From assembly GCA_035577265.1 (NCBI GenBank), contig DATLVR010000066.1:93819-157818 (forward strand): a DNA stretch of 64,000 nucleotides, written 5' to 3'. Of the stretch, positions 29,240-42,820 are shown one piece after another. Position numbers and translations under genes: made by a program. The notes under the pieces are model-generated. The model did not search any database. It worked only from the letters and a program-made list of their open reading frames with translations, and was not told where the DNA came from. Within the stretch, counting starts at the first letter, position 1. The number at the start of each line of letters is the position of its first letter. This stretch comes from Verrucomicrobiia bacterium. GTDB lineage: Bacteria > Verrucomicrobiota > Verrucomicrobiia > Limisphaerales > UBA11358.

Positions 29240-29782
29240 GTGAACAAACTGGCAAAACAGCTGGATAAATTCCTCCGCAAAACGCCGAAGCTCGGCAAGG
29301 GCGTTTATATCGCCAAGACCGCCACGGTCATCGGCGACGTGACGCTCGGCGCGCATTCGAGCGTGTGGTATGGCGCGGTGTTGCGCGGCGACATCAACCG
29401 CATCGTGGTCGGCCACCACTCGAACATCCAGGACAATTCCGTGCTGCATCTGGCGGACGATTTTCCGTGCATCCTTGGCAACTGGGTCACCGTCGGCCAC
29501 AGCGCGATCGTCCACGCCTGCACCGTCGGCGACGAAACCTTGGTCGGCATGGGCGCGTGCATTCTCGATGGCGCGGTCATCGGCAAACAATCGCTCATCG
29601 GCGCGCGGGCGCTGGTGACGCAGGGCACGAAGATTCCGCCCGGCTCGCTCGTCCTCGGCGCGCCGGCGAAGGTGGTCCGTAAGTTGTCCAAGGAAGAGCG
29701 TGCCGGATTAAAATGGTGGGCGGAAAAATACGTGGACAACACGGCGTATTGCTTGAAACACGGGATTAATAATCAGTCGTAG
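29240..29782 (+). CDS. gamma-class carbonic anhydrase family (hexapeptide LbH) protein
   Basis: VIGDVTLGAHSSVWYGAVLRGDINRIVVGHHSNIQDNSVLH. GTG start. Confidence 0.85.
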   Translation: MNKLAKQLDKFLRKTPKLGKGVYIAKTATVIGDVTLGAHSSVWYGAVLRGDINRIVVGHHSNIQDNSVLHLADDFPCILGNWVTVGHSAIVHACTVGDETLVGMGACILDGAVIGKQSLIGARALVTQGTKIPPGSLVLGAPAKVVRKLSKEERAGLKWWAEKYVDNTAYCLKHGINNQS

Positions 29783-30112
29783 CCGCCGACGTCAGTCGGC
29801 GCAAACTATTTTGGGAGCCTCGGGTTTGCTCGACGCTCGGAATTTCGTGAGGCTGTGGGTTCTCCGTTCAGATGGCGCGGACTGACGTCCGCGACTACCT
29901 GATTTTGTAGTCGCCGATGTGAATCGGCGCAAACTGTTTTGTGCTGAGGTTTAACCCGGATGCTCGTCCTGTCAAAAGTCAGCGCGGACTGACGCCCACG
30001 GCTACCAAGATTCGTAGCCGCCGATGTTAATCGGCGCAAACCGTTTTGTGATGAGGTTTAACCCGGATGCTCGTTCTGTCAAAAGTCAGCGCGGACTGAC
30101 GTCCGCGGCTAC
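29779..30112. repeat. REP/BIME-like array, family 1: three A-units and three B-units, including a ~107-nt tandem duplication
   Basis: A = gtagccgccgaygt.a.tcggcgcaaac at 29779, 29907 and 30014. B = gcgcggactgacgyccrcggctac at 29875, 29982 and 30089. B is about the reverse complement of A. Confidence 0.85.
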
Positions 30113-30117
30113 GAGTG

Positions 30118-30741
30118 TCATTCCATTTCGCGTGGCGGGAGGATGCGCTTTTCGATCCCCGGTTCACGCACGGCAGCATAGTGCTTCCAAAACCACGGCC
30201 AATAATCGTCGTCGAACACTTGCAAGCGCGGATAGCCTTGAATCACCGCGCCGAGATACGCCCAGTCGCCAGGGTTCTTCACGAGTCCGGCTTTGAGGGG
30301 ATTGAGCAAGACGTAATCGGCACAAGCCAGGCTGAATGCCTGGCGCTGGCGCTCTGCCGTGGTCAACACATGATCGTGTGGCTGATGCTGAAATTTCGCG
30401 GGCTTGAGGAACGGGCCGAGTTGGGCGCGCAGGAATTTGATGCCGTTACGCTGGTCGGCGTCGCAACGCACGCCCATCCAGACAAAATGCAGATGGTCGG
30501 GCATCAAACAATATGCCGGGCAAAGCAACCCCTCGCGTGCGGCGGCGTGCAATTGCATCTCACGAAACGCGGCGTGGAAAGGCGCGTTGAGCCAGCCGCG
30601 CTGACGCAGGTGGATGGGCATCGTCCAGAAAACCACGGCATCGGCTTGATAAAACTCGCGCTTGAGGCGCGGCAGGTAATGTGAGAATTCCGAACGCGGC
30701 TTACGCTCGTCCGGATCGGGCGGCGGCGGGTTGGTGGGCAT
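30118..30741 (-). mobile_element. REP-associated tyrosine transposase (RAYT; IS200/IS605 Y1 HUH family)
   Basis: YCLMPDHLHFVW (HUH motif) and ADYVLLNPLKAGLV (catalytic Tyr region). Flanked on both sides by family-1 REPs. Confidence 0.75.
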
Positions 30742-30753
30742 GGCAAAAATTTA

Positions 30754-30945
30754 GCGCGGACTGACGTCCGCGGCTACCAAGATTCGTAGCCGCCGACGTC
30801 AGTCGGCGCAAATGTCTTCCGAGAGGTTTGGCTTTTTGCCTGGTGCCCGGCATTTCGTGCGGTTGTCGGTGATTTATTTCAGATGGCGCGGACTAACGCC
30901 CACGGCTACTTGGCTTTGTGGCCGCCGATGTGAATCGGCGCAAAC
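30754..30945. repeat. REP/BIME-like array, family 1: two B-A pairs
   Basis: B at 30754 and 30886, A at 30786 and 30918. Same units as 29779-30112. Confidence 0.85.
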
Positions 30946-31019
30946 GGCTTTGCGATGAAGCGACAAGTTTTTATTTTCATTCGCGCCAACTTGCCGCATC
31001 TTCACCGTCACGAATTTTT

Positions 31020-32867
31020 ATGGCTGACAAAACGAAGCACAATTACGACGAGAGCAAGATCAAGACGCTGTCCTCACTGGAGCACATCCGGCTGCGCACC
31101 GGCATGTATATCGGGCGCATCGGCAACGGCAACAATCCCGACGACGGCTGTTACGTCCTGCTCAAGGAGGTCGTGGACAATGCGATTGACGAATACATCA
31201 TGGGCCACGGCAAGGAGGTCGAGATCAAGATCGCCGACGGCCGCGTCAGCGTGCGCGATTTCGGGCGCGGCATCCCGCTCGGCAAGGTCGTGGACTGCGT
31301 CTCCAAGATCAACACCGGCGCGAAATACAACGACGACGTGTTCCAGTTCAGCGTCGGCTTGAACGGCGTCGGCACCAAGGCCGTCAATGCGCTGTCAAAA
31401 TTCTTTCTCGTCCGCAGCCATCGCGATGGCGAATTTGCCGAGGCCGCGTTCAAGCAGGGCAAACTCAAGAAGGAAGATGCCGGCAAGACCAAGGAGCCCA
31501 ACGGCACGCTCATTGAGTTCGAGGCCGATCCGGAGATTTTCAAGGACAGCCAATTCCGCGACGAGCACATCGAGCGCCGGCTGCGGCATTACAGTTATCT
31601 GAATACCGGCCTGAAACTGATTTTAAAAACGCCGGATTCGCCCGAGCCAAAAATTTTCCAATCGCGCCACGGCCTGATGGACCTGGTGATGGAAGACATG
31701 GCGACCGACGGCAGCGAGCCGATCTATGCGCCGTTGCATTACGCGGGCAAGACGCTGGAGTTTTGTTTCACCCACAGCAACTCGCGCTACGGCGAGACGT
31801 TTTATTCCTTCGTCAACGGCCAATACACCAGCGACGGCGGCACGCATCTGAGCGCGTTCCGCGAGGGCCTGCTCAAGGCGGTGAACGAACATTGCAACGG
31901 CAAATACGAAGGCGACGACGTGCGCGAATGCATGGTCGGCGCGGTGGCGATTCGCCTGAAAGACCCGCTGTTCGAGTCGCAGACCAAAAACAAACTGGGC
32001 AACACGGAAATCCGCACCGAGCTGGTCAACAACGTGCGCGAGGAACTGCTGCATTTTTTCCAGCGCAACAAGGCGATCGCCGACAAGATCATCGAAAAGG
32101 TGGCGGACACGCAGCAGTTGCGGAAGGAATTGCAGGCGGTCAAGAAGCTCGCGCGCGAACGCGCCAAGTCCATCACGCTGCGCATCCCGCAGTTGAAGGA
32201 CTGCAAAAATCATTTCGACAAGAAGAAGGAAAAGGGCAAGGGCACGATGGTGTTCATCTGCGAAGGCCAGTCCGCCGCCGGCTCAATCACGAGCTGCCGC
32301 GACGTGAACAATCAGGCCGTGTTCGTGCTGAAAGGCAAGCCGCTCAACGTCTGGGATCTCAAGCGCGACGTGATGTATAAGAACGACGAGATGTATAACC
32401 TCATGCAGTCGCTCAACGTCGAGGACAACACCGAGGGCTTGCGCTACGACAAGGTCATCCTGGCCACCGACGCGGACGTGGATGGCATGCACATCCGCAA
32501 TCTGATGATCACGTATTTCTTCCGCTTCTTCGAGCAGCTCGTCCACGACGGCCACGTCCATGTGCTGGAGACGCCGCTGTTCCGCGTGCGCAACAAGGAG
32601 AACACGATTTACTGCTACAGCGAAACCGAGCGGGACAACGCGGTGAAGGAACTCGGCGGCAAGCCGGAGATCACGCGGTTCAAAGGCTTGGGCGAAATCA
32701 GCCCGAAAGAATTCCAGCAGTTCATCGGCAAGGAAATGCGGACGAGCAAGGTGGAATACGCCCCGCGTGCCGAGTCCGGCCCGATCTTCAACTTCTACAT
32801 GGGCAAGAACACGCCCGAGCGGAAGGATTACATCATGGACCGGCTGGTTGTGCCGGTGGAGGAGTAA
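31020..32867 (+). CDS. parE: type IIA DNA topoisomerase subunit B (topoisomerase IV ParE / GyrB-like)
   Basis: LEHIRLRTGMYIG, VVDNAIDE, GGTH, PLKGK-type TOPRIM region (VLKGKPLNV, ATDADVDGMHI). Start at MADKTKHNYDES (31020). Confidence 0.85.
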   Translation: MADKTKHNYDESKIKTLSSLEHIRLRTGMYIGRIGNGNNPDDGCYVLLKEVVDNAIDEYIMGHGKEVEIKIADGRVSVRDFGRGIPLGKVVDCVSKINTGAKYNDDVFQFSVGLNGVGTKAVNALSKFFLVRSHRDGEFAEAAFKQGKLKKEDAGKTKEPNGTLIEFEADPEIFKDSQFRDEHIERRLRHYSYLNTGLKLILKTPDSPEPKIFQSRHGLMDLVMEDMATDGSEPIYAPLHYAGKTLEFCFTHSNSRYGETFYSFVNGQYTSDGGTHLSAFREGLLKAVNEHCNGKYEGDDVRECMVGAVAIRLKDPLFESQTKNKLGNTEIRTELVNNVREELLHFFQRNKAIADKIIEKVADTQQLRKELQAVKKLARERAKSITLRIPQLKDCKNHFDKKKEKGKGTMVFICEGQSAAGSITSCRDVNNQAVFVLKGKPLNVWDLKRDVMYKNDEMYNLMQSLNVEDNTEGLRYDKVILATDADVDGMHIRNLMITYFFRFFEQLVHDGHVHVLETPLFRVRNKENTIYCYSETERDNAVKELGGKPEITRFKGLGEISPKEFQQFIGKEMRTSKVEYAPRAESGPIFNFYMGKNTPERKDYIMDRLVVPVEE

Positions 32868-32871
32868 CTTC

Positions 32872-33019
32872 TCCCTCTCCGCCTCGACCGGGGAGATTCC
32901 CTTCTCCGCTCTGGGGAGAAGGTGGCCGCAGGCCGGATGAGGTGCCGCGCCCTGACTCCACTTCGCGCGGGGGGTGAGGTGTCGAACTCTAAAATCTTTG
33001 ACACGAATTACACGAATTG
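32872..33019 (+). repeat. left copy of the composite direct repeat bracketing the inter-topoisomerase island
   Basis: 32872-32919 is 48/48 identical to 38667-38714. 32923-32986 is 61/64 identical to 38799-38862. Ends in a cacgaattacacgaattga tail. Confidence 0.9.
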
Positions 33020-33071
33020 AAAAGGTCGGCCGTGCGTAGGCGCAGCCGGCCAAAATCTTTGCCAAACATTT

Positions 33072-33977
33072 ATGTCTGACTCTGAAGCGACCGCCGAAAA
33101 AGCCTATGCGCCGCCAGCGAGCCAACTGCTTCAGCTCGGGGAACCGCGCGGCAACGAACGGCAGGCTTGGCGTGATTACGCCGCGATGGGCATTTCGACA
33201 GCGGCGGTGCCGGAGTTGATCCGAATGGCCACCGATGACGTGCTGCACGACAGCCCGCGAGACAGCCAGCTCGTCTGGGCGCCGGTTCACGCGTGGCGCG
33301 CACTTGGGCAATTGCGCGTGCCGGAAGCCATCGCGCCGCTGCTCATGCTGTTTCAACGCGCTGATGATGCCGATGAATGGGTCATGTCGGATTTGCCCAA
33401 AGCTCTGGCGCAAATCGGCGCAGCGGCCATTGAGCCGGTTGCAAATTACCTGGCCGACACGACGCGCGGCGAATGGGAGCGCGTGACGGCAGCGGATGCT
33501 CTCGGCCACATCGGCCAGGCGCATCCGGAATTGCGCGCCGAGTGCGTGACACGGGTGGCGGCACAGTTGGAAAACTTCGCCGAACAATCAGACACGCTGA
33601 ACGCATTTTTGGTTGCGCCGCTCTGGAATTTGCGGGCCGTTGAAGCGATGTCCGTCCTCGAGCGTGCATTTGCGTCCGGCCACGTGGACGAATCGGTCAA
33701 TGGCGATTTGGAGGACCTCCAAATTCATTTCGGATTGAAAGTGGCGCGCGAGCATCCGCCCAAACCGAATTCGCTCACGGAAATGAACCGGGAAATCGCC
33801 GGCTTGCATGAAGAAATCCAGGCTTACGAACGGGAAAACGCCGAATTGCGTTCGACGCTGGACGAACTGACGTTTGAACCGCCACCCATGCCGTATCTGG
33901 CTCCGCCGAAAATTGGCCGCAATGACCCGTGCCCCTGCGGCAGTGGGAAAAAGTATAAGAAGTGTTGCGGGGCCTGA
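33072..33977 (+). CDS. SEC-C motif protein (HEAT/DUF1186-like body)
   Basis: C-terminal [22 protein letters not shown] metal-binding motif. Confidence 0.7.
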
Positions 33978-33993
33978 AACGACGGGTGCTTTC

Positions 33994-34173
33994 GGCGAAA
34001 TCAGCCCGAAAGAATTCGCGCAATGCATCGGCAAGGTGCTGGCGCACGGCCACCGCGTGGAATACGCGCGACGCGCCGGGTCCGGGCCGATCTTCAACTT
34101 CTACATGGGCAAGAACACACCTGGGCGGAAGGATTCCATCATGGACCGGCTGGTCGTGCCGGTGGAGGAATGA
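33994..34173 (+). pseudogene. displaced, diverged copy of the last ~59 codons plus stop of the topo subunit B gene
   Basis: [45 protein letters not shown]-stop aligns with 32691-32867. Confidence 0.9.
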
Positions 34174-34223
34174 TTTGTGAAACGGATTGTTTCCAATTTC
34201 GAAAAACAGTATTCAATTTGGGC

Positions 34224-35006
34224 ATGCTCCCGCGACTGAAAGTCGTATCCATTATCAAACTGCTTTCGAGTGGCCGCACCAAGCCTTGCCTTGTTCTTGC
34301 TCAGGATGAAGACGGTGTGGAATGTGAAGTTGTTGTCAAATGGCGTTCCGGCCCGGAAACAAAAGACACTGGTGGCATCTGCGAGCTCATTAGTTCACTG
34401 CTCGCTGATGATTTTGACCTGCCGGCTCCGAAAGCAATGTTGGTTGACGTTGAACCCGATTTTCATCGTGCGGTTCCATGGCCAGAGATTGCAAAGTTGG
34501 TGAAGGCCAGCGCAGGCCCGAATTTTGCCACCAAATTCTTGCCAAGCATGACCACCTGGCCCACCGGACGACCGGTCGCATCATCATTGCGCACTCGCGC
34601 CTCGGAGATTTTTGCGTTTGATGCCTTGATTGAAAATCCGGACCGACGAATCAACAAGCCGAACATACTTTGGAGCGGTGAAGATTTGTGCTTGTGTGAC
34701 CATGAGCAGGCTTTTTCTTTTCTGCACGGCGTTATTGGTTGGCGGCCGGCATGGTCGGGACAAGGTCTTGAATTTCTCCGCAACCATGTGTTTTATGTCC
34801 AATTGAAAGGGCAAATCTGTGATTGGAGCAGGTTGAGTGGAGCGCTGGAAGCCATGAATGACAAGCGCCTGATTGATTATGCGACGGCGGTGCCAGATGA
34901 ATGGAAGACGGGAAATGATGCAACCGACCGCATTTTAGGTTATCTTAAAGGCGCGCGACAAAACAAGGCTGCGCTGTTTGCAGCCATTGACCAAATACTA
35001 AAATGA
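34224..35006 (+). CDS. HipA-like / PI3-4-kinase-fold Ser/Thr kinase domain protein (C-domain only)
   Basis: FAFDALIENPDRRINKPNILW (catalytic-loop-like D..N) and LCLCDHEQAF (DxG-like). About 260 aa. Start ATG 34224. Confidence 0.6.
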   Translation: MLPRLKVVSIIKLLSSGRTKPCLVLAQDEDGVECEVVVKWRSGPETKDTGGICELISSLLADDFDLPAPKAMLVDVEPDFHRAVPWPEIAKLVKASAGPNFATKFLPSMTTWPTGRPVASSLRTRASEIFAFDALIENPDRRINKPNILWSGEDLCLCDHEQAFSFLHGVIGWRPAWSGQGLEFLRNHVFYVQLKGQICDWSRLSGALEAMNDKRLIDYATAVPDEWKTGNDATDRILGYLKGARQNKAALFAAIDQILK

Positions 35007-35872
35007 AAACGACATACACATTCACGATCTTGCGATACGTGCATGACATCGCTACCGGCGAATTTGTCAATGTGGGCGTGGCTCTTTACGCTCCCGAGGC
35101 AAAATATGTCAGTGCCATCTGCTGCCCGCGCTACGGACGCTTGAGTAAAATGTTTCTCGATGTGAACGGCGACCAACTCCGCCCGCTGATGCGTTTTATA
35201 CAAGCACGCTTCGAGGAATACACCCTGAAATTGAACGATGAGTTGGCTTTGCATGGCCAGCCAAAGAGCGTCATGGAAATCGCCGCAAACATTCTTCCTC
35301 CAGATGACAGCTCTCTGCAATGGTCGGAACCGGGTGGTGGCTTCACCGAAAATCCCGGCGTGACCTTGGAACAGCTTTACAGCCGGCTTGTCGAGAAATA
35401 CGAACAACGCGCACAGGTGCCAAGCCGCACCGATGATGAGGTGTGGCGCGGCTTTAAAAAGGAGCTTGAAGTCAAACAAGTCCTGGCAAAGTTGCAGCCG
35501 AAACGGATTATCGCCAAAGATTACGACCATGAATTTGACCATGCTTGGAAGAATGGCGCTTGGAATCTTTACCAGCCCATCTCATTTGATTTAATTGATG
35601 CGGAAAGCCTCTTAGACAAGGCCAATCGCTGGCTTGGTCGTGCCACAATTCTTCAAGAGTCGCAGGAAAAATTTAAGCTGCACATGCTCTTGGGTGAACC
35701 TCGTTTGGAAAAACTAAAGTCCGCATACGGAAAAGCATTGAATATCCTCAACCGGATGCCGGTCAAAAAGGAATTTGTTCGCGAGGACGAAGCATCCAAT
35801 TTTTCCAAAGCCTTGGCAGAGGAAATCGAAAAGCATAAGTCGGCAATTTTTTATCATGCGGACATTGGTTGA
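35003..35872 (+). CDS. DUF3037-like protein, unknown function
   Basis: N-terminus YTFTILRYVHDIATGEFVNVGVALY matches my recollection of the DUF3037 signature. ATGA overlap with the kinase gene. Confidence 0.5.
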   Translation: MKTTYTFTILRYVHDIATGEFVNVGVALYAPEAKYVSAICCPRYGRLSKMFLDVNGDQLRPLMRFIQARFEEYTLKLNDELALHGQPKSVMEIAANILPPDDSSLQWSEPGGGFTENPGVTLEQLYSRLVEKYEQRAQVPSRTDDEVWRGFKKELEVKQVLAKLQPKRIIAKDYDHEFDHAWKNGAWNLYQPISFDLIDAESLLDKANRWLGRATILQESQEKFKLHMLLGEPRLEKLKSAYGKALNILNRMPVKKEFVREDEASNFSKALAEEIEKHKSAIFYHADIG

Positions 35873-36080
35873 AATTCAAGATGCCGTTGCCCAGCTTCCC
35901 GGCGACGAACGAAAAGCTTTGCAGATGTGGCTCAATTCCCAAGGTGAGTCCGGGTTGACCGCGCCGGAAGAACAGCGCCTGCTGCGTTCGCTGAATGAAG
36001 CCGTCCGCGACATTGATGCCGGCAAAGGCGTGCCGATAAATGATGTCCGCAAGCGGGTGGCATCATGGGCTTCAAAATAA
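35856..36080 (+). CDS. type II antitoxin (addiction-module component-like)
   Basis: 74 aa, MRTLVEIQDAVAQLPGDERKAL... Overlaps both neighbours and sits just upstream of a RelE/ParE-type toxin gene. Confidence 0.55.
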   Translation: MRTLVEIQDAVAQLPGDERKALQMWLNSQGESGLTAPEEQRLLRSLNEAVRDIDAGKGVPINDVRKRVASWASK

Positions 36081-36352
36081 TTTTCTCGCCGCAAGCGATC
36101 GCGGACCTGAAGGAAGTCGTCCGCCACATTGCCAGGGATGATCCCGCCACCGCCGTCCGCGTCGGCTACGAACTGATTGATCGTGTAGAAATTCTCGAAA
36201 ACTTTCCATTGCTCGGTGCGCCGTATGCCAAACGCCCGGGCGTGCGCAAGCTGGTGTCGCGGCATTCCTCATTTTCTACCGTCCGAGGCTGGAGGAAAAT
36301 ACTGTGGACATCCTGCGTTACAGGCACGGCGCGCGCACCGGGCCGGAGTTAA
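36065..36352 (+). pseudogene. RelE/ParE-superfamily toxin, frameshifted
   Basis: N-part [38 protein letters not shown] is in frame 1. The conserved [24 protein letters not shown] is in another frame from 36265. Confidence 0.6.
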
Positions 36353-36492
36353 GTTCACTTGATTGGACCGACTCGTCGTGCCGACGGAGGAATGTCGCGA
36401 AAGTCTTCGCTTGGGCGAAAGTTGACGGAGGGGCTGGCAATCATTGCCACTGGCGCAACGGCGCGGGTTCGATTACACCATGGCATCAACAT

Positions 36493-37362
36493 ATGAAAAT
36501 CGAATCCAAAAAATTCCGCGTCCGCGAAGGCGAAACGGTCAAACTCAAAAAATGGCCGACCCAAGTGAAGCCGTTTTACCAGTCGAAGGAGGATTACAAA
36601 TCCAGACTCGAAGCGAGCACCACGGAATTGAGCGAACTCCAGAGCCTGCTTTATGCCGACAACCACCATTCGTTGCTGCTGATTTTTCAGGCGATGGACG
36701 CGGCGGGCAAGGACGGCGCCATCAAGCACGTCATGTCCGGCATTAACCCGCAGGGCTGCCAAGTCTACAGCTTCAAGCATCCGAGCGCGACGGATTTGGA
36801 GCACGATTTTCTCTGGCGCACCACGCGCTGCCTGCCGGAACGCGGGAACATCGGCATCTTCAACCGGTCCTATTACGAGGAGGTGCTCATCGTGCGGGTC
36901 CACCCCGAAATTTTACAAGCGCAGGATATGCCGCCGGAATCGCTCGACGACAAAAAATTCTGGGAACACCGCTTCCGTTCCATCAACGAGCTGGAAAAGC
37001 ATCTGGACCGCAATGGCACCCGCATCGTGAAATTTTTTCTGCACGTGTCCAAGGACGAACAGCGCCGCCGCTTCCTGTCGCGGATCGACGCGCCGGAGAA
37101 AAATTGGAAGTTCAGCCAGACCGACGTCGAGGAGCGCAAATTCTGGCCGGATTACATGCAGGCGTATGAAGCATGCCTGGGCGCGACAAGCACCGGCCAT
37201 GCCCCGTGGTTCGTGATTCCCGCCGACGACAAGGAAAACGCCCGGCTCATCATTTCGCAGGTCGTGCTCGACACGTTGAACGCCTTGAAGATGAAGTATC
37301 CCGAAACCTCCAAGGCGCGCCGCAAGGAATTGCTGGCCATCCGCAAGTCCCTCGAGAAATAA
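36493..37362 (+). CDS. polyphosphate kinase 2 (PPK2) family protein
   Basis: [14 protein letters not shown] Walker-A-like motif, [10 protein letters not shown], and typical PPK2 length starting at MKIESKKF. Confidence 0.8.
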
Positions 37363-37380
37363 ATTCCGTTCCGCCCGAGC

Positions 37381-38631
37381 ATGTCCGCCGACGCAACAAT
37401 GTTCATCGACAAGCCGGTGGTATTGACGATTTTTGCGCTCACTTATCTGGGCATCGCCATGGGACGCGTGCCCGGCCTGAAACTGGATCGCACCGGCATC
37501 GTCATGTTGGGAGCGATCGCCATGATGGTGTTCGGCGGGCTGCCGACGACGGACGCCATCGGCTTCATCAACTGGCCGACCATCCTGCTGTTGTTCGGTT
37601 TCTTTGTGCTCTCAGCCCAGCTGCGGTTGTCCGGATTTTTCGACGCCGTGGCGGGCGGCCTCGCGCGGAAGCTTGGCAGCCCGGCGCGATTTCTGATGTT
37701 GTTGATGCTGGCCACGGCGGGCCTTTCGGCCTTCCTGAACCATGACATCGTCTGCTTTGTTTTTACACCGATTGTCGCGATGGCGCTGTTGAAACGGCAG
37801 TTGAATCCCGTGCCGTTCCTGATCGCGCTGGCCATCGCCAGCAACATCGGCGCGGCGGCCACGCTGGTGGGCAATCCACAGGACATGATGATCGGGCAGA
37901 TGGCCGGGCTGGGGTTTGGGCATTACGCGTTATGGTGCATCGTGCCGGTGATTTTCGCATTGGGCTGCGCCCATGCCATCATCTGGCGGCTCTCGCGCCA
38001 TCGCCTGGCGGCCAAGGTGACGTCACCTTTCGATCCCGTCGTGACGCCACGTCCGTTCGACCGTCCACACACGATCAAAGGACTGGTCATCCTCGTTGTC
38101 GTCATCGGCCTGTTCTTCTCGCCGCTGCCCGCTGAATTGGTCGCCTTGACAGCGGCGGCCATCCATCTGGCCAGCCCGAAGTTCCGCACCGAAGATTTGT
38201 TGAGGCTCGTGGACTGGCCGATTCTGGTGCTGTTCATGGGACTCTTCGTGGTGACCGGCGCGTTTCAGACCACCGGCTACGGCGAACAAGCCGTGCAATG
38301 GCTGGCTCAAGGCGGGCTGCATCTGCAATCGCCACCGACGCTGGCGCTGGTCACGGCTGCCCTGTCCAACCTCATCAACAACTCCGCCGCCGTGATGCTG
38401 CTGCTGAAGGTGGCGGACATCACGCAACCACCGGCCGCCTATGTGCTGGCACTGGCGAACAGTTTCGGCGGCAGCCTGCTCATCATCGGCAGCGTCGCCA
38501 ACATCATCGTGGTGCAGCAGGCCCGTGAACTGGGCATCCACATTTCCTTCCGCGACTTCGCCCGGCTCGGCATTCCGGTGACGCTGGCGGCGCTCGCCGG
38601 TTTGCTGGTGTGGGTGAGGTTGATGGCGTGA
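37381..38631 (+). CDS. anion permease of the ArsB/NhaD (SLC13-like) superfamily
   Basis: 416 aa, about 11 TM, LTYLGIAMGRVPGLKLDRTGIVMLGA N-terminus typical of this family. Confidence 0.65.
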   Translation: MSADATMFIDKPVVLTIFALTYLGIAMGRVPGLKLDRTGIVMLGAIAMMVFGGLPTTDAIGFINWPTILLLFGFFVLSAQLRLSGFFDAVAGGLARKLGSPARFLMLLMLATAGLSAFLNHDIVCFVFTPIVAMALLKRQLNPVPFLIALAIASNIGAAATLVGNPQDMMIGQMAGLGFGHYALWCIVPVIFALGCAHAIIWRLSRHRLAAKVTSPFDPVVTPRPFDRPHTIKGLVILVVVIGLFFSPLPAELVALTAAAIHLASPKFRTEDLLRLVDWPILVLFMGLFVVTGAFQTTGYGEQAVQWLAQGGLHLQSPPTLALVTAALSNLINNSAAVMLLLKVADITQPPAAYVLALANSFGGSLLIIGSVANIIVVQQARELGIHISFRDFARLGIPVTLAALAGLLVWVRLMA

Positions 38632-38642
38632 GGCGCCCGGTT

Positions 38643-38903
38643 AACCACGAAATACACGAAAACAATTCCCTCTCCGCCTCGACCGGGGAGATTCCCTTCT
38701 CCGCTCTGGGGAGACTTGAGCCGTTTGGGAAGCTGCGAAAGGAATTCGCCGGAGGCGAAGGCCCGCAGGGCCAAGCGAGCGGGAGTGAGCGAGTCCACTG
38801 GCCGCAGGCCGGATGAGGTGCCGCGCCCTGATTCCACTTCGCGCGGAGGGCGAGGTGTCGAATATCAACTGAAGAAGTTCCTGAGACGAATTTCACGAAT
38901 TGA
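38643..38903 (+). repeat. right copy of the composite direct repeat, with an 84-nt internal insertion
   Basis: Same blocks as 32872-33019, interrupted at 38715-38798. cacgaa-type motifs at both ends. Confidence 0.9.
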
Positions 38904-39004
38904 CTCGAATGCGAATGGCACGGATGGTGCCATCTCTCAATTTTACCGCTCGCGAATCTTGCCCCGCCCGTTCACTTCTGGCTTAATACGCGCCGCTTTA
39001 TATC

Positions 39005-41131
39005 ATGTCAGCCAAGAAAAAGAAAGATTCCGGTCAGCCGGAATTGCCCATCGAAGGCACGCCACCCGCCGCGCCGTCGCAAACCGCGCCCGCGAAGAAA
39101 TCTTCCGGGCCCGATGGCAACGGCGCGGACCACGTCATCGCCGAAACGGTGGAGCCCGTCGTTCACAAGCCGTTCGATCCGAAACAATCCGGCGGCGGTT
39201 TGCACACACGCGTGGATCGCGGGTTTCTGGATTATGCCAGCTACGTCATTCGCGACCGCGCGATTCCGAATCTTGCCGACGGTTTCAAGCCGGTGCAGCG
39301 CCGCATCATGTGGGCGTTGCACGAGAAGGACGACGGCCGCTTCATCAAGGTCGCCAACGTCGTCGGCCACACGATGCAGTATCATCCGCACGGCGACGCA
39401 TCCATCGGCGACGCGCTCGTGGTGCTGGCGAACAAACGCTATCTCATCGAGGGCCAGGGAAATTTCGGCAACATTTTCACCGGCGATCCCGCGGCTGCGT
39501 CGCGTTACATCGAATGCCGGCTGACGGAACTCGCGCGCACGGAGGTTTTCAACGACTCCATCACCGAGTTCATTCCCAGCTACGACGGGCGCAACAAAGA
39601 ACCCGTGTCGCTGCCGTGCAAACTGCCGCTGACCTTGATGCTCGGCACGGAAGGCATCGCGGTCGGTTTGAGTGCGCGCATTCTGCCGCACAATTTCCCC
39701 GAGCTGCTCGAAGCGCAGATCGCGATCCTCAAGAAGCAGCCGTTCAAGTGTCTGCCGGATTTTTCGACCGGCGGCCTGATGGATGCGCGCGATTATCAGG
39801 ACGGCAAAGGTTCGGTGAAAGTCCGCGCCAAGATCAAGACCAAGGACGAGTCCACCGTCGTCATCAAGGAAATCCCGCCGACCACCACGACGGAATCGCT
39901 GATCGCGTCCATCGAGGACGCGGTGCAAAAGGGCAAACTCAAGGTAAAATCCATCAACGATTTCACGTCCGAAACCGTCGAGATCGAAATCAAATGTCCG
40001 TCCGGCGTGGATGCCGAGAAAATGGTGGACGCGCTGTATGCCTTCACCGATTGCGAAGTCTCCATCGCGAGCCGCATCGTCGTCATCAAGGACAACCGCC
40101 CGGTCGAGCTGACGGTGTCGGAAATTCTGCGCGAGAACACCGACCAGCTCGTCGCCATTCTCAAGCGTGAACTGGAGTTGCGGGAGAAGAACCTGCTCGA
40201 CGAACTGCATTACCGCACGCTGGAACGCATCTTCATCGAGGAGCGCATCTACAAATTGATCGAGAAGTGCAAGACGAACGAAGCGGTGTTCGCCGCCGTT
40301 TATGAAGGCTTCAAGCCGTTCCAGAAGCAGCTCGTGCGCGAGATCGTGGATGCCGACGTGGAGAAGCTGTTGCAGGTCCGCATCCGCCGCATTTCGCTCT
40401 TCGACATCAACAAACATCGCGAGGAGATGGAGAAGACGAAGGCCGAGCTCGCCGAGACTCTGAAGAATCTCAAGAGTCTCACGAAATATGTCATCGGCCA
40501 TCTCGAAACCTTGCTGGAAAAATACGGCCCGCAGTATCCGCGCCTGACCACCAAGTCCGCGCGCCACGAGGAAGTGGACGTGAAAGCGGTGGCGTTCAAG
40601 TCGTTCAAGGTCGCCTACGACCGCGCGACCGGCTACGTCGGCTACAAGGTGAGCGGCGACGAGTTCAAGCTCGAATGCACCAAGTTCGACAAGGTGCTGC
40701 TCGTGTTCAAGGATGGGACTTACAAAGTCAACGAACTGCCGGAGAAATTATTCGTCGGGCCGGAGCTGTTTTACTGCGGTCTGCCGGACCGCGAAAAAGT
40801 TTTCACCTGCGCCTACACGGATCGCAACGCGAGCTACCTGAAACGGTTCACGTTCGGCGGCACGATTATGAACAAGGCCTATTCGTGCATCCCGGAGAAG
40901 TCGCGCATCCTCTTCTTTGCGCCCGAGACGCCGAAAGTGCTTTATGTCCGCTACAAGCCGGCATTGCACCAGAAGGTCTCGCAACAGACCTGCGAACCGG
41001 AACATGTGGAAGTGAAATCGCCCAAGACCCGCGGCCGTCAGCTTTCCATCAAGGACATTTCATCCGTCACCGCCGAGCCGACGCGCGGCTGGGATGAAAC
41101 CGCGGCGACCACGAAGATCGTGTTTGCGTGA
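39005..41131 (+). CDS. parC: type IIA DNA topoisomerase subunit A (topoisomerase IV ParC / GyrA-like)
   Basis: FLDYASYVIRDRAIPNLADGFKPVQRRIMW, HPHGD, RYIECRLT (catalytic Tyr region). Confidence 0.85.
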   Translation: MSAKKKKDSGQPELPIEGTPPAAPSQTAPAKKSSGPDGNGADHVIAETVEPVVHKPFDPKQSGGGLHTRVDRGFLDYASYVIRDRAIPNLADGFKPVQRRIMWALHEKDDGRFIKVANVVGHTMQYHPHGDASIGDALVVLANKRYLIEGQGNFGNIFTGDPAAASRYIECRLTELARTEVFNDSITEFIPSYDGRNKEPVSLPCKLPLTLMLGTEGIAVGLSARILPHNFPELLEAQIAILKKQPFKCLPDFSTGGLMDARDYQDGKGSVKVRAKIKTKDESTVVIKEIPPTTTTESLIASIEDAVQKGKLKVKSINDFTSETVEIEIKCPSGVDAEKMVDALYAFTDCEVSIASRIVVIKDNRPVELTVSEILRENTDQLVAILKRELELREKNLLDELHYRTLERIFIEERIYKLIEKCKTNEAVFAAVYEGFKPFQKQLVREIVDADVEKLLQVRIRRISLFDINKHREEMEKTKAELAETLKNLKSLTKYVIGHLETLLEKYGPQYPRLTTKSARHEEVDVKAVAFKSFKVAYDRATGYVGYKVSGDEFKLECTKFDKVLLVFKDGTYKVNELPEKLFVGPELFYCGLPDREKVFTCAYTDRNASYLKRFTFGGTIMNKAYSCIPEKSRILFFAPETPKVLYVRYKPALHQKVSQQTCEPEHVEVKSPKTRGRQLSIKDISSVTAEPTRGWDETAATTKIVFA

Positions 41132-41181: not shown

Positions 41182-41394
41182 ATGGCACTGACCAATCTTG
41201 CCGTGGCTGAAGAAGCACTGTCGCTGTCGCCTGCCGAGCGGGCGGATTTGGCGAAGCTGCTGATTCAGAGCCTTGAAAACGACAGCCGCTCGGACGCGGA
41301 AATCAAAGCCGAGCTCAACCGCCGCCTCGATGATTTGCTTTCAAGCAAGGATGCCGGTCTGAGCTTTGAACAAGTCTTCGGCGTTCGGGCGTGA
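41182..41394 (+). CDS. type II antitoxin (putative addiction module component)
   Basis: 70 aa, EEALSLSPAERADLAKLLIQSLEND..AELNRRLDDL fits the unstable-antitoxin family. Confidence 0.65.
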   Translation: MALTNLAVAEEALSLSPAERADLAKLLIQSLENDSRSDAEIKAELNRRLDDLLSSKDAGLSFEQVFGVRA

Positions 41395-41718: not shown

Positions 41719-41769
41719 ACGCGCGGCTGGGATGAAAAGGCAACGACGACGAAAATTATTTTAGCTTGA
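41719..41769 (+). repeat. diverged displaced copy of the last 16 codons plus stop of the topo subunit A gene
   Basis: TRGWDEKATTTKIILA-stop versus the authentic TRGWDETAATTKIVFA-stop (41081-41131). Same length and in frame. Confidence 0.8.
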
Positions 41770-42030: not shown

Positions 42031-42705
42031 ATGAAAAAGAGTGCGCAACCCCACGTGAAAATTGAAGTCACCAAGGACGGCCCGTATCTCGTCAGCGGCG
42101 ACCTGCCTTTGAGCGAACAATGGATCGTCACCAATGCCGGGGGCGATTCTCTCGAATACCGGGAAGGGAAAAAGTTTCCTGCCCAGCCGCAATACGCCCT
42201 CTGTCGCTGCGGCCAGTCGGCAAACAAACCTTTCTGCGACGGCACCCACGCGAAGGTTCATTTCGACGGCACGGAAACGGCCAGCCATGAACCCTACTTG
42301 CAGCAAGCCGGGACCATCGAAGGCCCGACGATGGTGCTTACCGACCAGGAGAACTTGTGCGCGTTCGCCCGCTTCTGCGATCCGAAAGGTCGGATTTGGA
42401 ATCTTGTCAAGCAGGACAGCCCCGAAGCCCAAGAAATCGTAAAACATGAGGCGGCACATTGTCCCGCCGGACGATTGGTGATCTGGGACAAGGCGACCGG
42501 GAAAGCCATTGAGCAGAACTTTGCTCCATCCCTCGCACTCATCGAGGACGCGGAGAAGAAAGTCAGCGGCCCGATCTGGGTGCGCGGAGGCATCCCAGTC
42601 CTTTCCGCCGAGGGGAAGACCTACGAGGTTCGGAACCGGCTGACCTTGTGCCGCTGCGGCAGTTCTGCCAACAAGCCATTCTGCGACGGTTCACACGCGG
42701 GCTGA
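42031..42705 (+). CDS. CDGSH iron-sulfur domain protein (two CDGSH motifs)
   Basis: CRCGQSANKPFCDGTH and CRCGSSANKPFCDGSH, plus a central Cys-rich segment. Confidence 0.85.
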   Translation: MKKSAQPHVKIEVTKDGPYLVSGDLPLSEQWIVTNAGGDSLEYREGKKFPAQPQYALCRCGQSANKPFCDGTHAKVHFDGTETASHEPYLQQAGTIEGPTMVLTDQENLCAFARFCDPKGRIWNLVKQDSPEAQEIVKHEAAHCPAGRLVIWDKATGKAIEQNFAPSLALIEDAEKKVSGPIWVRGGIPVLSAEGKTYEVRNRLTLCRCGSSANKPFCDGSHAG

Positions 42706-42772
42706 ACTTGGACCTGCCATGCTCAAGCCGCACAAAAAATAAAGGCCGCGCATTTCATCACACCCGGCGAAG

Positions 42773-42820
42773 CGCGGCTGGGATGAAACCGCGGCAACCA
42801 CCAAGATTGTGTTTGCGTGA
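42773..42820 (+). repeat. well-preserved displaced copy of the last 15 codons plus stop of the topo subunit A gene
   Basis: 45/48 nt identical to 41084-41131. All three differences are synonymous. Followed by a hairpin at 42822-42852. Confidence 0.9.

Follow-up and report, generated by a model that had tools for sequence, protein, structure and literature searches.

A verrucomicrobial HipA_2 kinase/DUF3037 gene pair as a probable divergent member of the HipAD (DS-6/PDC-M66) anti-phage family

Introduction

Classical HipBA toxins are recognized by the phosphorylation of an aminoacyl-tRNA synthetase, either GltX or TrpS. HipAD, a system formerly called DS-6, is also said to be the subject of a paper by Brenes & Laub in Cell Host Microbe in 2025. 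DS-6 was validated as an anti-phage system in E. coli (DeWeirdt, Mahoney & Laub, Science 2026, PMC13092281), where its two proteins, DS-6A (WP_000389051.1) and DS-6B (WP_000210934.1), confer about 3.9 log of protection against phage Bas1, and where the D139A mutant of DS-6A loses defence (PMC13092281 supplement). In the same work, AlphaFold3 predicted a DS-6A-DS-6B complex as well as contacts of DS-6B with DNA, and the C-terminus of DS-6B was weakly assigned to DUF1829 by HHpred with a probability of 78% (PMC13092281).

A second HipA-like/DUF3037 pair, found in the Retron-Sda1 operon, constitutes a standalone defence (PLoS Biol 2025, PMC12548924) and protects against Bas51. Deletion of the kinase gene in that operon abolished defence, and deletion of the DUF3037 gene was toxic, whereas the HTH gene that precedes the pair and the retron ncRNA/RT that follow it were both dispensable. 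According to its authors, the C-terminus of the Sda1 partner resembles a retron type III-A1 DNA-binding protein (PMC12548924). No kinase target is reported for HipA_2/DUF3037 systems in either of the two studies, in which abortive infection by these pairs is put forward as a hypothesis (PMC12548924, PMC13092281). The PADLOC name of the Sda1 pair is PDC-M66, a phage defence candidate (PADLOC-DB v2.0.0; Payne et al. 2024 preprint) that was proposed through bioinformatic 'guilt-by-embedding' rather than as a tested system.

Here we describe a gene pair of this kind in a stretch of DNA of 64,000 nucleotides from an uncultured member of the Verrucomicrobiae, hereafter the window. The earlier note on this DNA regarded the pairing as lying outside the named and characterized systems, a view that is not supported, since it is catalogued as PDC-M66 and validated both as DS-6/HipAD (PMC13092281) and beside Retron-Sda1 (PMC12548924). 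Its central proposal, a mobile kinase module of TA-like and/or anti-phage character, is well supported by the Pfam families found, by obligate synteny and by the recurrence of defence genes as neighbours. The pair is probably a functional verrucomicrobial member of HipAD (DS-6/PDC-M66), that is, a horizontally acquired, two-gene TA-like module with an anti-phage role.

The HipA_2 kinase

The first gene (positions 34224 to 35006 of the + strand, as for all the features below; ATG at 34224, stop at 35006) encodes a HipA_2-family Ser/Thr-type kinase of 260 aa, as indicated by Pfam, PADLOC, BLASTP, an AF2 model and dN/dS. The HipA/PI3-4-kinase-type motifs noticed earlier in this ORF of ~260 aa are indeed present (FAFDALIENPDRRINKPNILW at residues 130-150, plus LCDHEQAF), and the sole Pfam match is HipA_2 (PF20613; 1e-18, 68 bits vs a gathering score of 27), which covers model positions 1-212 of 240; as had been claimed, there is no HipA N-domain. 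The PADLOC model PDC-M66A is matched with an E-value of 7.8e-63 over positions 9-269 of 270, and NCBIfam holds no model for either the kinase or its DUF3037 partner.

In an alignment of 56 kinase homologues, N138 and R141 of the catalytic loop are invariant and D140 is conserved in at least 90%; the codons of this N138-P-D140-R141 stretch, also placed by pairwise alignment with DS-6A, occupy 34635 to 34646. The columns of K39, D159 and H160 are likewise invariant. From general knowledge of the kinase fold, we take K39 (VVVK, codon at 34338 to 34340) to be the ATP-binding lysine, and D159-H160 (CDHE, 34698 to 34703), which align with the 'IDHN' of DS-6A, would be the putative Mg2+-binding, DFG-equivalent motif. 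The AF2 model shows a kinase fold (pLDDT 93) whose nearest folds are CtkA, PI3K/PI4K and RIO kinases; HipA is absent from its top 50 fold matches, and when the kinase alignment was run as a profile against the sequences of PDB chains, the only matches were spurious helical ones, again with no HipA.

By analogy, the pair may be likened to the classical HipBA and HipBST modules, in which a HipA-related, protein-kinase-like toxin arrests growth and is neutralized by a co-encoded protein. The kinase of the window, however, has neither the HipA_C nor the HipA N-terminal Pfam domains of classical HipBA, and the pair has neither the HTH protein HipB nor HipS. Its gene order also differs from that of HipBA, with the toxin first and an unrelated DUF3037 protein downstream as the partner. 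DUF3037 goes unmentioned in Gerdes' 2021 phylogeny of Hip systems, in agreement with the initial view that this is not a classical Hip family.

The DUF3037 partner

The second gene (35003 to 35872) encodes a DUF3037-family protein of 289 aa, as supported by Pfam, PADLOC, BLASTP, hhalign, AF2 and dN/dS. Its recognition as DUF3037-like proved right for residues 7-130, to which the Pfam match is limited (PF11236; 1.6e-17, 64 bits vs a gathering score of 22.6, full model 1-118), so both of the expected Pfam families, a HipA-like kinase (HipA_2, PF20613) and PF11236, were matched; for the C-terminal ~160 aa, Pfam gave nothing. The PADLOC model PDC-M66B is matched with an E-value of 1.7e-83 over positions 2-279 of 281. 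Both proteins thus match the PDC-M66 models over their full length and, therefore, PADLOC would call the locus PDC-M66.

The AF2 model of the partner (pLDDT 84) has two domains, the C-terminal one being of the alpha/beta type. None of its matches in a fold search reached significance (best E 0.025, TM <= 0.3), for which reason a nuclease fold is not claimed; weak, recurring and non-significant matches of the C-terminal domain were to Can2, Mus81-Eme1, FAAP24, EcoO109I and Card1. These nuclease-domain matches, together with the predicted contacts of DS-6B with DNA (PMC13092281), would fit a scheme in which the DUF3037 protein, with for example a restriction-endonuclease-like nuclease domain or one that binds DNA, is the sensor or effector and is regulated by the kinase. 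In the same direction, the partner, which has over 2,000 homologues at E <= 0.001, is the more conserved of the two proteins (2153 vs 108 database matches; dN/dS 0.027 vs 0.088), and its gene is retained at some loci that lack an intact kinase gene. We consider this scheme quite unlikely, however, since the fold matches are all non-significant, no canonical PD-(D/E)xK motif was identified in the partner, and the results of the Sda1 deletions, toxic for the partner and abolishing defence for the kinase (PMC12548924), fit a simple kinase-toxin model. It is similarly doubtful that DUF3037 acts as a kinase-controlled nucleic-acid-binding or restriction-endonuclease-like sensor/effector across the large environmental subfamily of which PDC-M66 is the archetype; if it did, the module would work otherwise than a HipBA-style toxin-antitoxin.

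Relationship with DS-6 and the Retron-Sda1 pair

DS-6 and the pair of the window share a HipA_2 kinase gene followed by a DUF3037 gene with a 4-nt stop/start overlap, match the same Pfam and PADLOC models, and have no HipB-like HTH partner. The kinase aligns along its length with DS-6A (25% identity, BLASTP E 2e-8), D139 of DS-6A (NADR) corresponding to D140 of the window kinase (NPDR). The partner aligns with DS-6B at 21% identity (BLASTP E 2e-8 over residues 1-256; hhalign probability 94.6% over residues 1-218), and the C-terminal domains of both are homologous at least to residue 218. At a threshold of E <= 1, hmmscan found no DUF1829 in the C-terminal domain of the window partner nor in DS-6B. 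The two pairs belong to different, distantly related subfamilies, and the scores of the shared models are very different, with 1e-63/1e-83 for PDC-M66A/B in the window vs 1e-15/1e-16 in DS-6, and 1e-77 for HipA_2 in DS-6 vs 1e-18 in the window. Moreover, the E. coli DS-6 is associated with prophages and defence, whereas the copy of the window is chromosomal, in Verrucomicrobiae, and located between topoisomerase genes. The anti-phage role of this subfamily would follow by homology to validated E. coli proteins with 21-25% identity.

The Sda1 pair shows the same two-gene architecture, and the N-termini of the kinases, which were compared by eye, are similar ('...IKLGGSTKPILV...' vs '...IKLLSSGRTKPCLV...'). 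It is this pair that provides genetic evidence for the kinase as toxin and the DUF3037 protein as antitoxin.

Genomic context

The pair sits between the genes of two topoisomerase subunits and, as previously remarked, is significantly richer in A/T than its surroundings, with a GC content of 0.498 vs a window mean of 0.589 (sd 0.024, equal-sized windows), the lowest of any such stretch in the 64 kb. Its GC3 is 0.51/0.56 vs 0.80-0.83 for the topoisomerase genes. This composition, together with the presence of homologues in at least 9 phyla and on plasmids, supports the foreign and mobile character of the pair. The claim that the pair lies between the topoisomerase genes stands, but not that it is part of a single foreign island. 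The PPK2 and permease genes of the same stretch have a host-like codon composition (GC3), and a related MAG (L002) carries the pair at the same site without the other inserted genes, so that the idea of one island was rejected; the 'island' is composite.

Upstream of the kinase gene are a pseudo 3′ end of the gyrB-like gene and a gene for a SEC-C/HEAT protein, with no HTH gene, as the earlier note had it. The gyrB-like remnant, a decayed duplicate outside the module (33991 to 34173; 88-89% identity to 32688-32870), is co-linear with the genuine gyrB-like 3′ end in L002, and it marks an ancestral junction in which the gyrB-like gene was followed by ~50 nt and the kinase gene. The pair is found directly 3′ of a gyrB-like gene in three related genomes, namely the window, L002/L009 and L038. 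From this constant position one could suspect a housekeeping regulatory kinase pair tied functionally to the topoisomerase genes, a reading that we regard as extremely unlikely given the foreign composition of the pair, its presence on plasmids and a synonymous divergence that exceeds that of the flanking genes; in other phyla, the contexts are unrelated, and topoisomerase neighbours are limited to the clade of the window.

The 50-nt leader 5′ of the kinase gene (34174 to 34223) is conserved in the same-clade loci L009/L002 and L038. It holds a hairpin or palindrome, GAAACGGATTGTTTC (34179-34193), with a stem that is preserved and a loop that differs among these loci, and the sequence TTTCGAAA. 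The leader may contain a promoter or operator, or else the terminator of the gene before it. Among 95 loci, no operator common to the family was found upstream of the kinase gene, the leaders being clade-specific only, and a scan for sigma-70 promoters and intrinsic terminators around the pair, probably uninformative for Verrucomicrobia, did no better than on shuffled sequences.

At its other end, ORF B (the partner gene) overlaps the next ORF by 17 nt (35856-35872). This overlap had been correctly noted, but the reading of four genes packed head to tail as one system was rejected, since the downstream cassette is absent from L002, its later insertion changed how ORF B ends, and the toxin gene that it carries is frameshifted. 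The cassette, which is outside the kinase module, consists of a ParD-like small ORF (35856 to 36080), called an antitoxin only from its position before a ParE_toxin-family ORF, and of this frameshifted ORF itself (36065 to 36352; Pfam ParE_toxin 5.5e-8), whose match covers the N-terminal 62 of 89 model positions and whose canonical C-terminus is encoded in the +2 frame. The cassette is a separate, apparently decayed TA, and the neighbourhood of the pair in the window contains no recognized defence system, only this ParDE remnant.

The homology of ORF B to L002 ends at '...EIEKHK', where the L002 protein finishes with '...HHKE' and a stop. The 10 extra residues of the window (SAIFYHADIG, 35840 to 35872 with the stop codon) are read from the inserted cassette, and homologues of the partner measure 279-282 aa vs 289 aa in the window. 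This foreign end in place of the native C-terminus could affect function. The altered ORF B, the frameshift of the neighbouring ParE-like gene and the decay of several homologous loci would all be compatible with an inactive relic. Such an explanation is very unlikely, as both ORFs are full length and retain all the residues that are invariant in the family, their dN/dS values are low (0.03-0.09), and the kinase sequence occurs unchanged in independent assemblies, an identical 260-aa protein being recorded in public databases as 'HipA family kinase' from a Verrucomicrobiae MAG (P0121).

Conservation, spread and decay

The co-encoding of the two families anticipated in the earlier note was found across genomes: the partner gene is directly downstream of the kinase gene in all 72 assessable metagenome loci seeded with the kinase, and 22 of the 28 genome loci seeded with the partner contain an intact pair. 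An ATGA-type overlap of 4 nt is present in 21 of these 22 and in most of the metagenome loci. No conserved operon surrounds the homologous pairs, which have neighbours of 92 families; those that recur are R-M (the pair being beside or inside R-M systems), SIR2 and ABC-3C. In 50,697 phage records, tblastn with the partner as query gave no match.

In the decayed loci (L004-L006 among them), either the partner remains alone or both genes are decayed, and an intact kinase alone was never seen. This asymmetry lends independent, if indirect, comparative support to the putative roles of toxin for the kinase and of antitoxin for the DUF3037 protein. The dN/dS values of the pair (0.07-0.09 for the kinase and 0.027 for the partner) are similar to those of the neighbouring topoisomerase genes and show strong purifying selection on the two genes.

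Some of these features would also be expected from a plain addiction (stabilization) TA module, a selfish element maintained in a chromosomal insertion hotspot, with no anti-phage role in its host: the pair is built like a TA, decayed toxin genes are found next to intact partner genes, and the pair adjoins a second TA cassette, itself decayed, at a site of repeated insertions, with no defence genes nearby in the window. This explanation seems rather unlikely to us, because protection against phages by homologous pairs was found in two independent labs, because homologues are repeatedly located next to R-M systems or within them, and because the strong purifying selection seen in the kinase points to an activity that is selected for. 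In any case, addiction and anti-phage roles are not mutually exclusive.

Proposed mechanism

The most likely pathway for a HipAD-type defence module at this locus would start with the co-transcription of the two genes and their translational coupling through the ATGA stop/start overlap, which was rightly seen in the sequence at 35003 to 35006. The DUF3037 protein would then bind the kinase and keep it inactive, as proposed because deletion of the DUF3037 gene is toxic in Sda1 and because AlphaFold3 predicts a DS-6A-DS-6B complex; the decay of kinases beside intact partners, and never the reverse, fits a partner that holds the kinase inactive. Phage infection would relieve this inhibition, and the kinase, through K39, D140, N147 and D159, would phosphorylate one or more cellular or phage targets. 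Finally, the phosphorylation of these targets would arrest growth or abort the infection, a kinase-driven outcome suggested by the loss of defence in both the DS-6A D139A mutant and the Sda1 kinase deletion.

Concluding remarks

The locus is a real but ordinary new representative of a known kinase/DUF3037 defence family. Its practical value is modest. Questions that concern the whole family, such as what the kinase phosphorylates, what the DUF3037 protein senses and what its fold does, are no more readily addressed with this locus than with the systems already available in E. coli. As a divergent and well-conserved orthologue from Verrucomicrobia, it could nevertheless serve for structural work or for the comparison of targets. 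For the family as a whole, it means that HipAD-type modules are not confined to enterobacterial prophages, but form a large and horizontally spread family in which the kinase and its partner are obligately linked.

Results

The feature described in the earlier note is real and was accurately described. A kinase gene of 260 aa starts with the ATG at 34224 and ends at 35006 on the forward strand, where an ATGA overlap (35003-35006) joins its stop to the start of a 289-aa partner ORF on the same strand (35003-35872). The kinase matches HipA_2 (PF20613, 1e-18) and, as had been claimed, lacks a HipA N-terminal domain according to Pfam, with no HTH gene upstream. A database entry identical to it, from a Verrucomicrobiae MAG, is annotated as 'HipA family kinase', which places the window in an uncultured verrucomicrobium. 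The partner matches DUF3037 (PF11236, 1.6e-17) at residues 7-130 only. Both proteins hit the same PADLOC entry over their full length, the kinase through PDC-M66A (7.8e-63) and the partner through PDC-M66B (1.7e-83); PDC entries are untested candidates, picked out because they lie within BREX, DISARM or type I R-M systems ('guilt-by-embedding'; Payne et al. 2024 preprint). The reported A/T-richness is also borne out, as the GC content of the 1.65-kb pair (0.498) is the lowest among equal-sized stretches of the window (mean 0.589, sd 0.024), and its GC3 is 0.51/0.56 versus 0.80-0.83 in the flanking topoisomerase genes. The pair is of foreign origin.

A HipA-like/DUF3037 pair called PDC-M66 by PADLOC adjoins Retron-Sda1, and protects E. 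coli from phage Bas51 with no need for the retron's RT or ncRNA. Deletion of its kinase abolishes defence and deletion of its DUF3037 gene is toxic, and the authors concluded that the kinase acts as a toxin, which the DUF3037 protein neutralises (PMC12548924). DS-6, renamed HipAD, is composed of a HipA-related kinase (DS-6A) and a DUF3037 protein (DS-6B) and also protects E. coli, its defence being lost in the kinase mutant D139A. AlphaFold3 places A and B in a complex and gives weaker predictions of contacts between B and DNA; a HipBA-like toxin-antitoxin, possibly acting through abortive infection, was proposed (PMC13092281). The DS-6 sequences, taken from the supplement of the latter paper, match the Pfam and PADLOC models that the window proteins hit, with the same gene order and 4-nt overlap. 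Identities are 25% for the kinases (E 2e-8) and 21% for the partners over residues 1-256 (E 2e-8), and the window partner profile aligns to DS-6B with 94.6% probability along residues 1-218, so that the likeness extends past the DUF3037 domain. The locus very probably belongs to the HipAD/PDC-M66 family. The novelty attributed to the pairing does not hold, since PADLOC lists it and both the DS-6/HipAD and Sda1-adjacent pairs have been validated experimentally.

In the case of the kinase, all the invariant or near-invariant residues in an alignment of 56 homologues are kept (K39, E54, D133, N138, D140, R141, N147, D159-H160), D140 (NPDR) being aligned with DS-6A D139 (NADR). Its confident AlphaFold2 model (pLDDT 93.3) adopts a protein-kinase-like fold, closest by structure comparison to H. 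pylori CtkA, PI3K/PI4K and RIO kinases. Classical HipA was not found by a sequence-profile search of PDB chains, and the kinase/DUF3037 family is missing from the 2021 Hip phylogeny; the kinase is therefore 'HipA-like' by name and fold class, and falls outside HipBA. The partner model shows two domains (pLDDT 84, pTM 0.52), and no solved structure was significantly matched in a fold search with it. Weak matches to restriction-endonuclease-like nuclease domains (Can2, Mus81-Eme1, FAAP24, EcoO109I and Card1) recur, which would hint at a sensor or effector instead of a passive antitoxin, although as non-significant hits (E at least 0.025, TM at most 0.3) they offer just a lead.

Partner homologues number 2,153 at E <= 0.001, the nearest in Verrucomicrobiota. 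A partner-seeded scan of species-representative genomes yielded 29 loci spread over nine or more phyla; 28 were assessable. Intact kinase and partner genes occur together in 22, with the 4-nt overlap in 21 of those; in two loci the kinase alone has decayed and the partner is intact, in two both genes have decayed, and in two the partner is decayed and the kinase absent. The reciprocal kinase-seeded metagenome scan gave 80 loci, and in all 72 with enough downstream sequence a DUF3037-type ORF starts at the kinase stop. These layouts (72/72 and 22/28) indicate that the two families are obligately linked, and their co-encoding across genomes is thereby confirmed. Neither scan revealed an intact kinase without a partner. 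More truncated or split kinase genes adjoin intact partners in L004-L006; overall, truncated, frameshift-split or fragmentary kinases, usually with an intact DUF3037 gene, were seen in related loci L004, L005, L006, L025, L030, L036 and L037, and the reverse pattern never among about 100 assessable loci. Such asymmetric decay is what a toxin-antitoxin pair would be expected to show.

Compared with L002, a related MAG carrying the pair alone at the same site, dN/dS values (kinase 0.088, partner 0.027) are on par with those of the flanking topoisomerase genes (0.05-0.07), so purifying selection maintains both genes. In the same comparison (window 34224-35872 versus L002 9222-10843), the kinase has a dS of 0.77 and the partner a saturated one of about 2.2, far above the flanking genes (0.37-0.48) despite the identical position, which may reflect recombinational exchange at a fixed hotspot or inflation through weak codon bias.

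Across the 29 genome loci, the genes closest to the pair belong to 92 Pfam families and form no conserved operon. Only restriction-modification components, RadC, SIR2 and ABC-3C domains recur among them, and in L007 a type I R-M system immediately precedes the pair. Plasmids of Vibrio, Hymenobacter and others carry homologous pairs annotated as DUF3037 and 'HipA family kinase', and none was present in the phage collection searched.

At the topoisomerase site, the gyrB-like and subunit A genes are 91% and 89% identical to L002 at the nucleotide level, and the block with the pseudo 3' end, kinase and partner (33991-35839) is 82.5% identical, its position unchanged. In a third genome (L038), too, the stop codon of a gyrB-like gene directly precedes the pair, and the leader is conserved. 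Two blocks are extra relative to L002: 32871-33990 (a repeat and a SEC-C/HEAT gene), followed by the old and now redundant copy of the gyrB-like 3' end (33991-34173), and 35840-39001 (a ParD-like ORF, a frameshifted ParE-like gene, PPK2, a permease and a repeat). The second was inserted two codons ahead of the partner stop, which gave the partner a foreign 10-residue tail and a 17-nt overlap with the next ORF (ATG at 35856). The 'four genes head to tail' are thus two unrelated cassettes, the overlap being real but an insertion by-product. As for the proposed island, its location and the foreign GC of the pair stand, but the GC3 of PPK2 and the permease is like that of the host and the interval holds two extra blocks.

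Several other features were observed nearby. A second copy of the final 183 nt of the gyrB-like gene (32688-32870) lies 1.3 kb downstream (33991-34173, 88-89% identity), with the SEC-C/HEAT gene between, and the terminal ~50 nt of the subunit A gene (41082-41131) recur downstream at 41719-41768 and 42772-42820. The cassettes in between carry an antitoxin-like ORF of 70 aa (41182-41394) and a protein of 224 aa with CDGSH-type motifs (42031-42705). Each small cassette is thus followed by a repeat of the 3' end, with its stop codon, of the housekeeping gene upstream; the pattern resembles successive insertions of Campbell type or at att sites, targeting the 3' ends of genes, but no integrase was seen. 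A repeat occurring just twice in the window, immediately 3' of the gyrB-like stop (32872-33020) and ~100 nt upstream of the subunit A gene (38667-38903), with a 48-nt exact core and then segments at 91-95% identity, brackets all the inserts between the topoisomerase genes. The ParE_toxin-family gene (36065-36352) is frameshifted, its canonical C-terminus (26 residues) lying in the +2 frame from about 36255, and the gene calls are identical in an independent Logan contig (L001); the toxin is probably inactivated, with its ParD-like partner (35856-36080) retained. The 301-aa protein at 33072-33977 combines HEAT/PBS-lyase-type repeats with a C-terminal SEC-C metal-binding motif, whose weak matches to PADLOC PDC-S12 and E2-like models (1.9e-9 to 5e-5) probably reflect this shared motif only. 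Adjoining the gyrB-like gene on its upstream side (29774-30955), an IS200/RAYT-like transposase ORF, assigned by eye (30118-30741, reverse strand), lies between two arrays (29774-30117 and 30745-30955) of REP-like repeats of ~107 nt, both direct and inverted.

Discussion

By analogy with its homologues, the kinase would be toxic, the DUF3037 partner would neutralise it, and the two together would confer phage defence. The locus is likely to be a kinase-toxin/DUF3037-antitoxin module defending against phage, and the pair is an addition to a known and experimentally validated kind of system.
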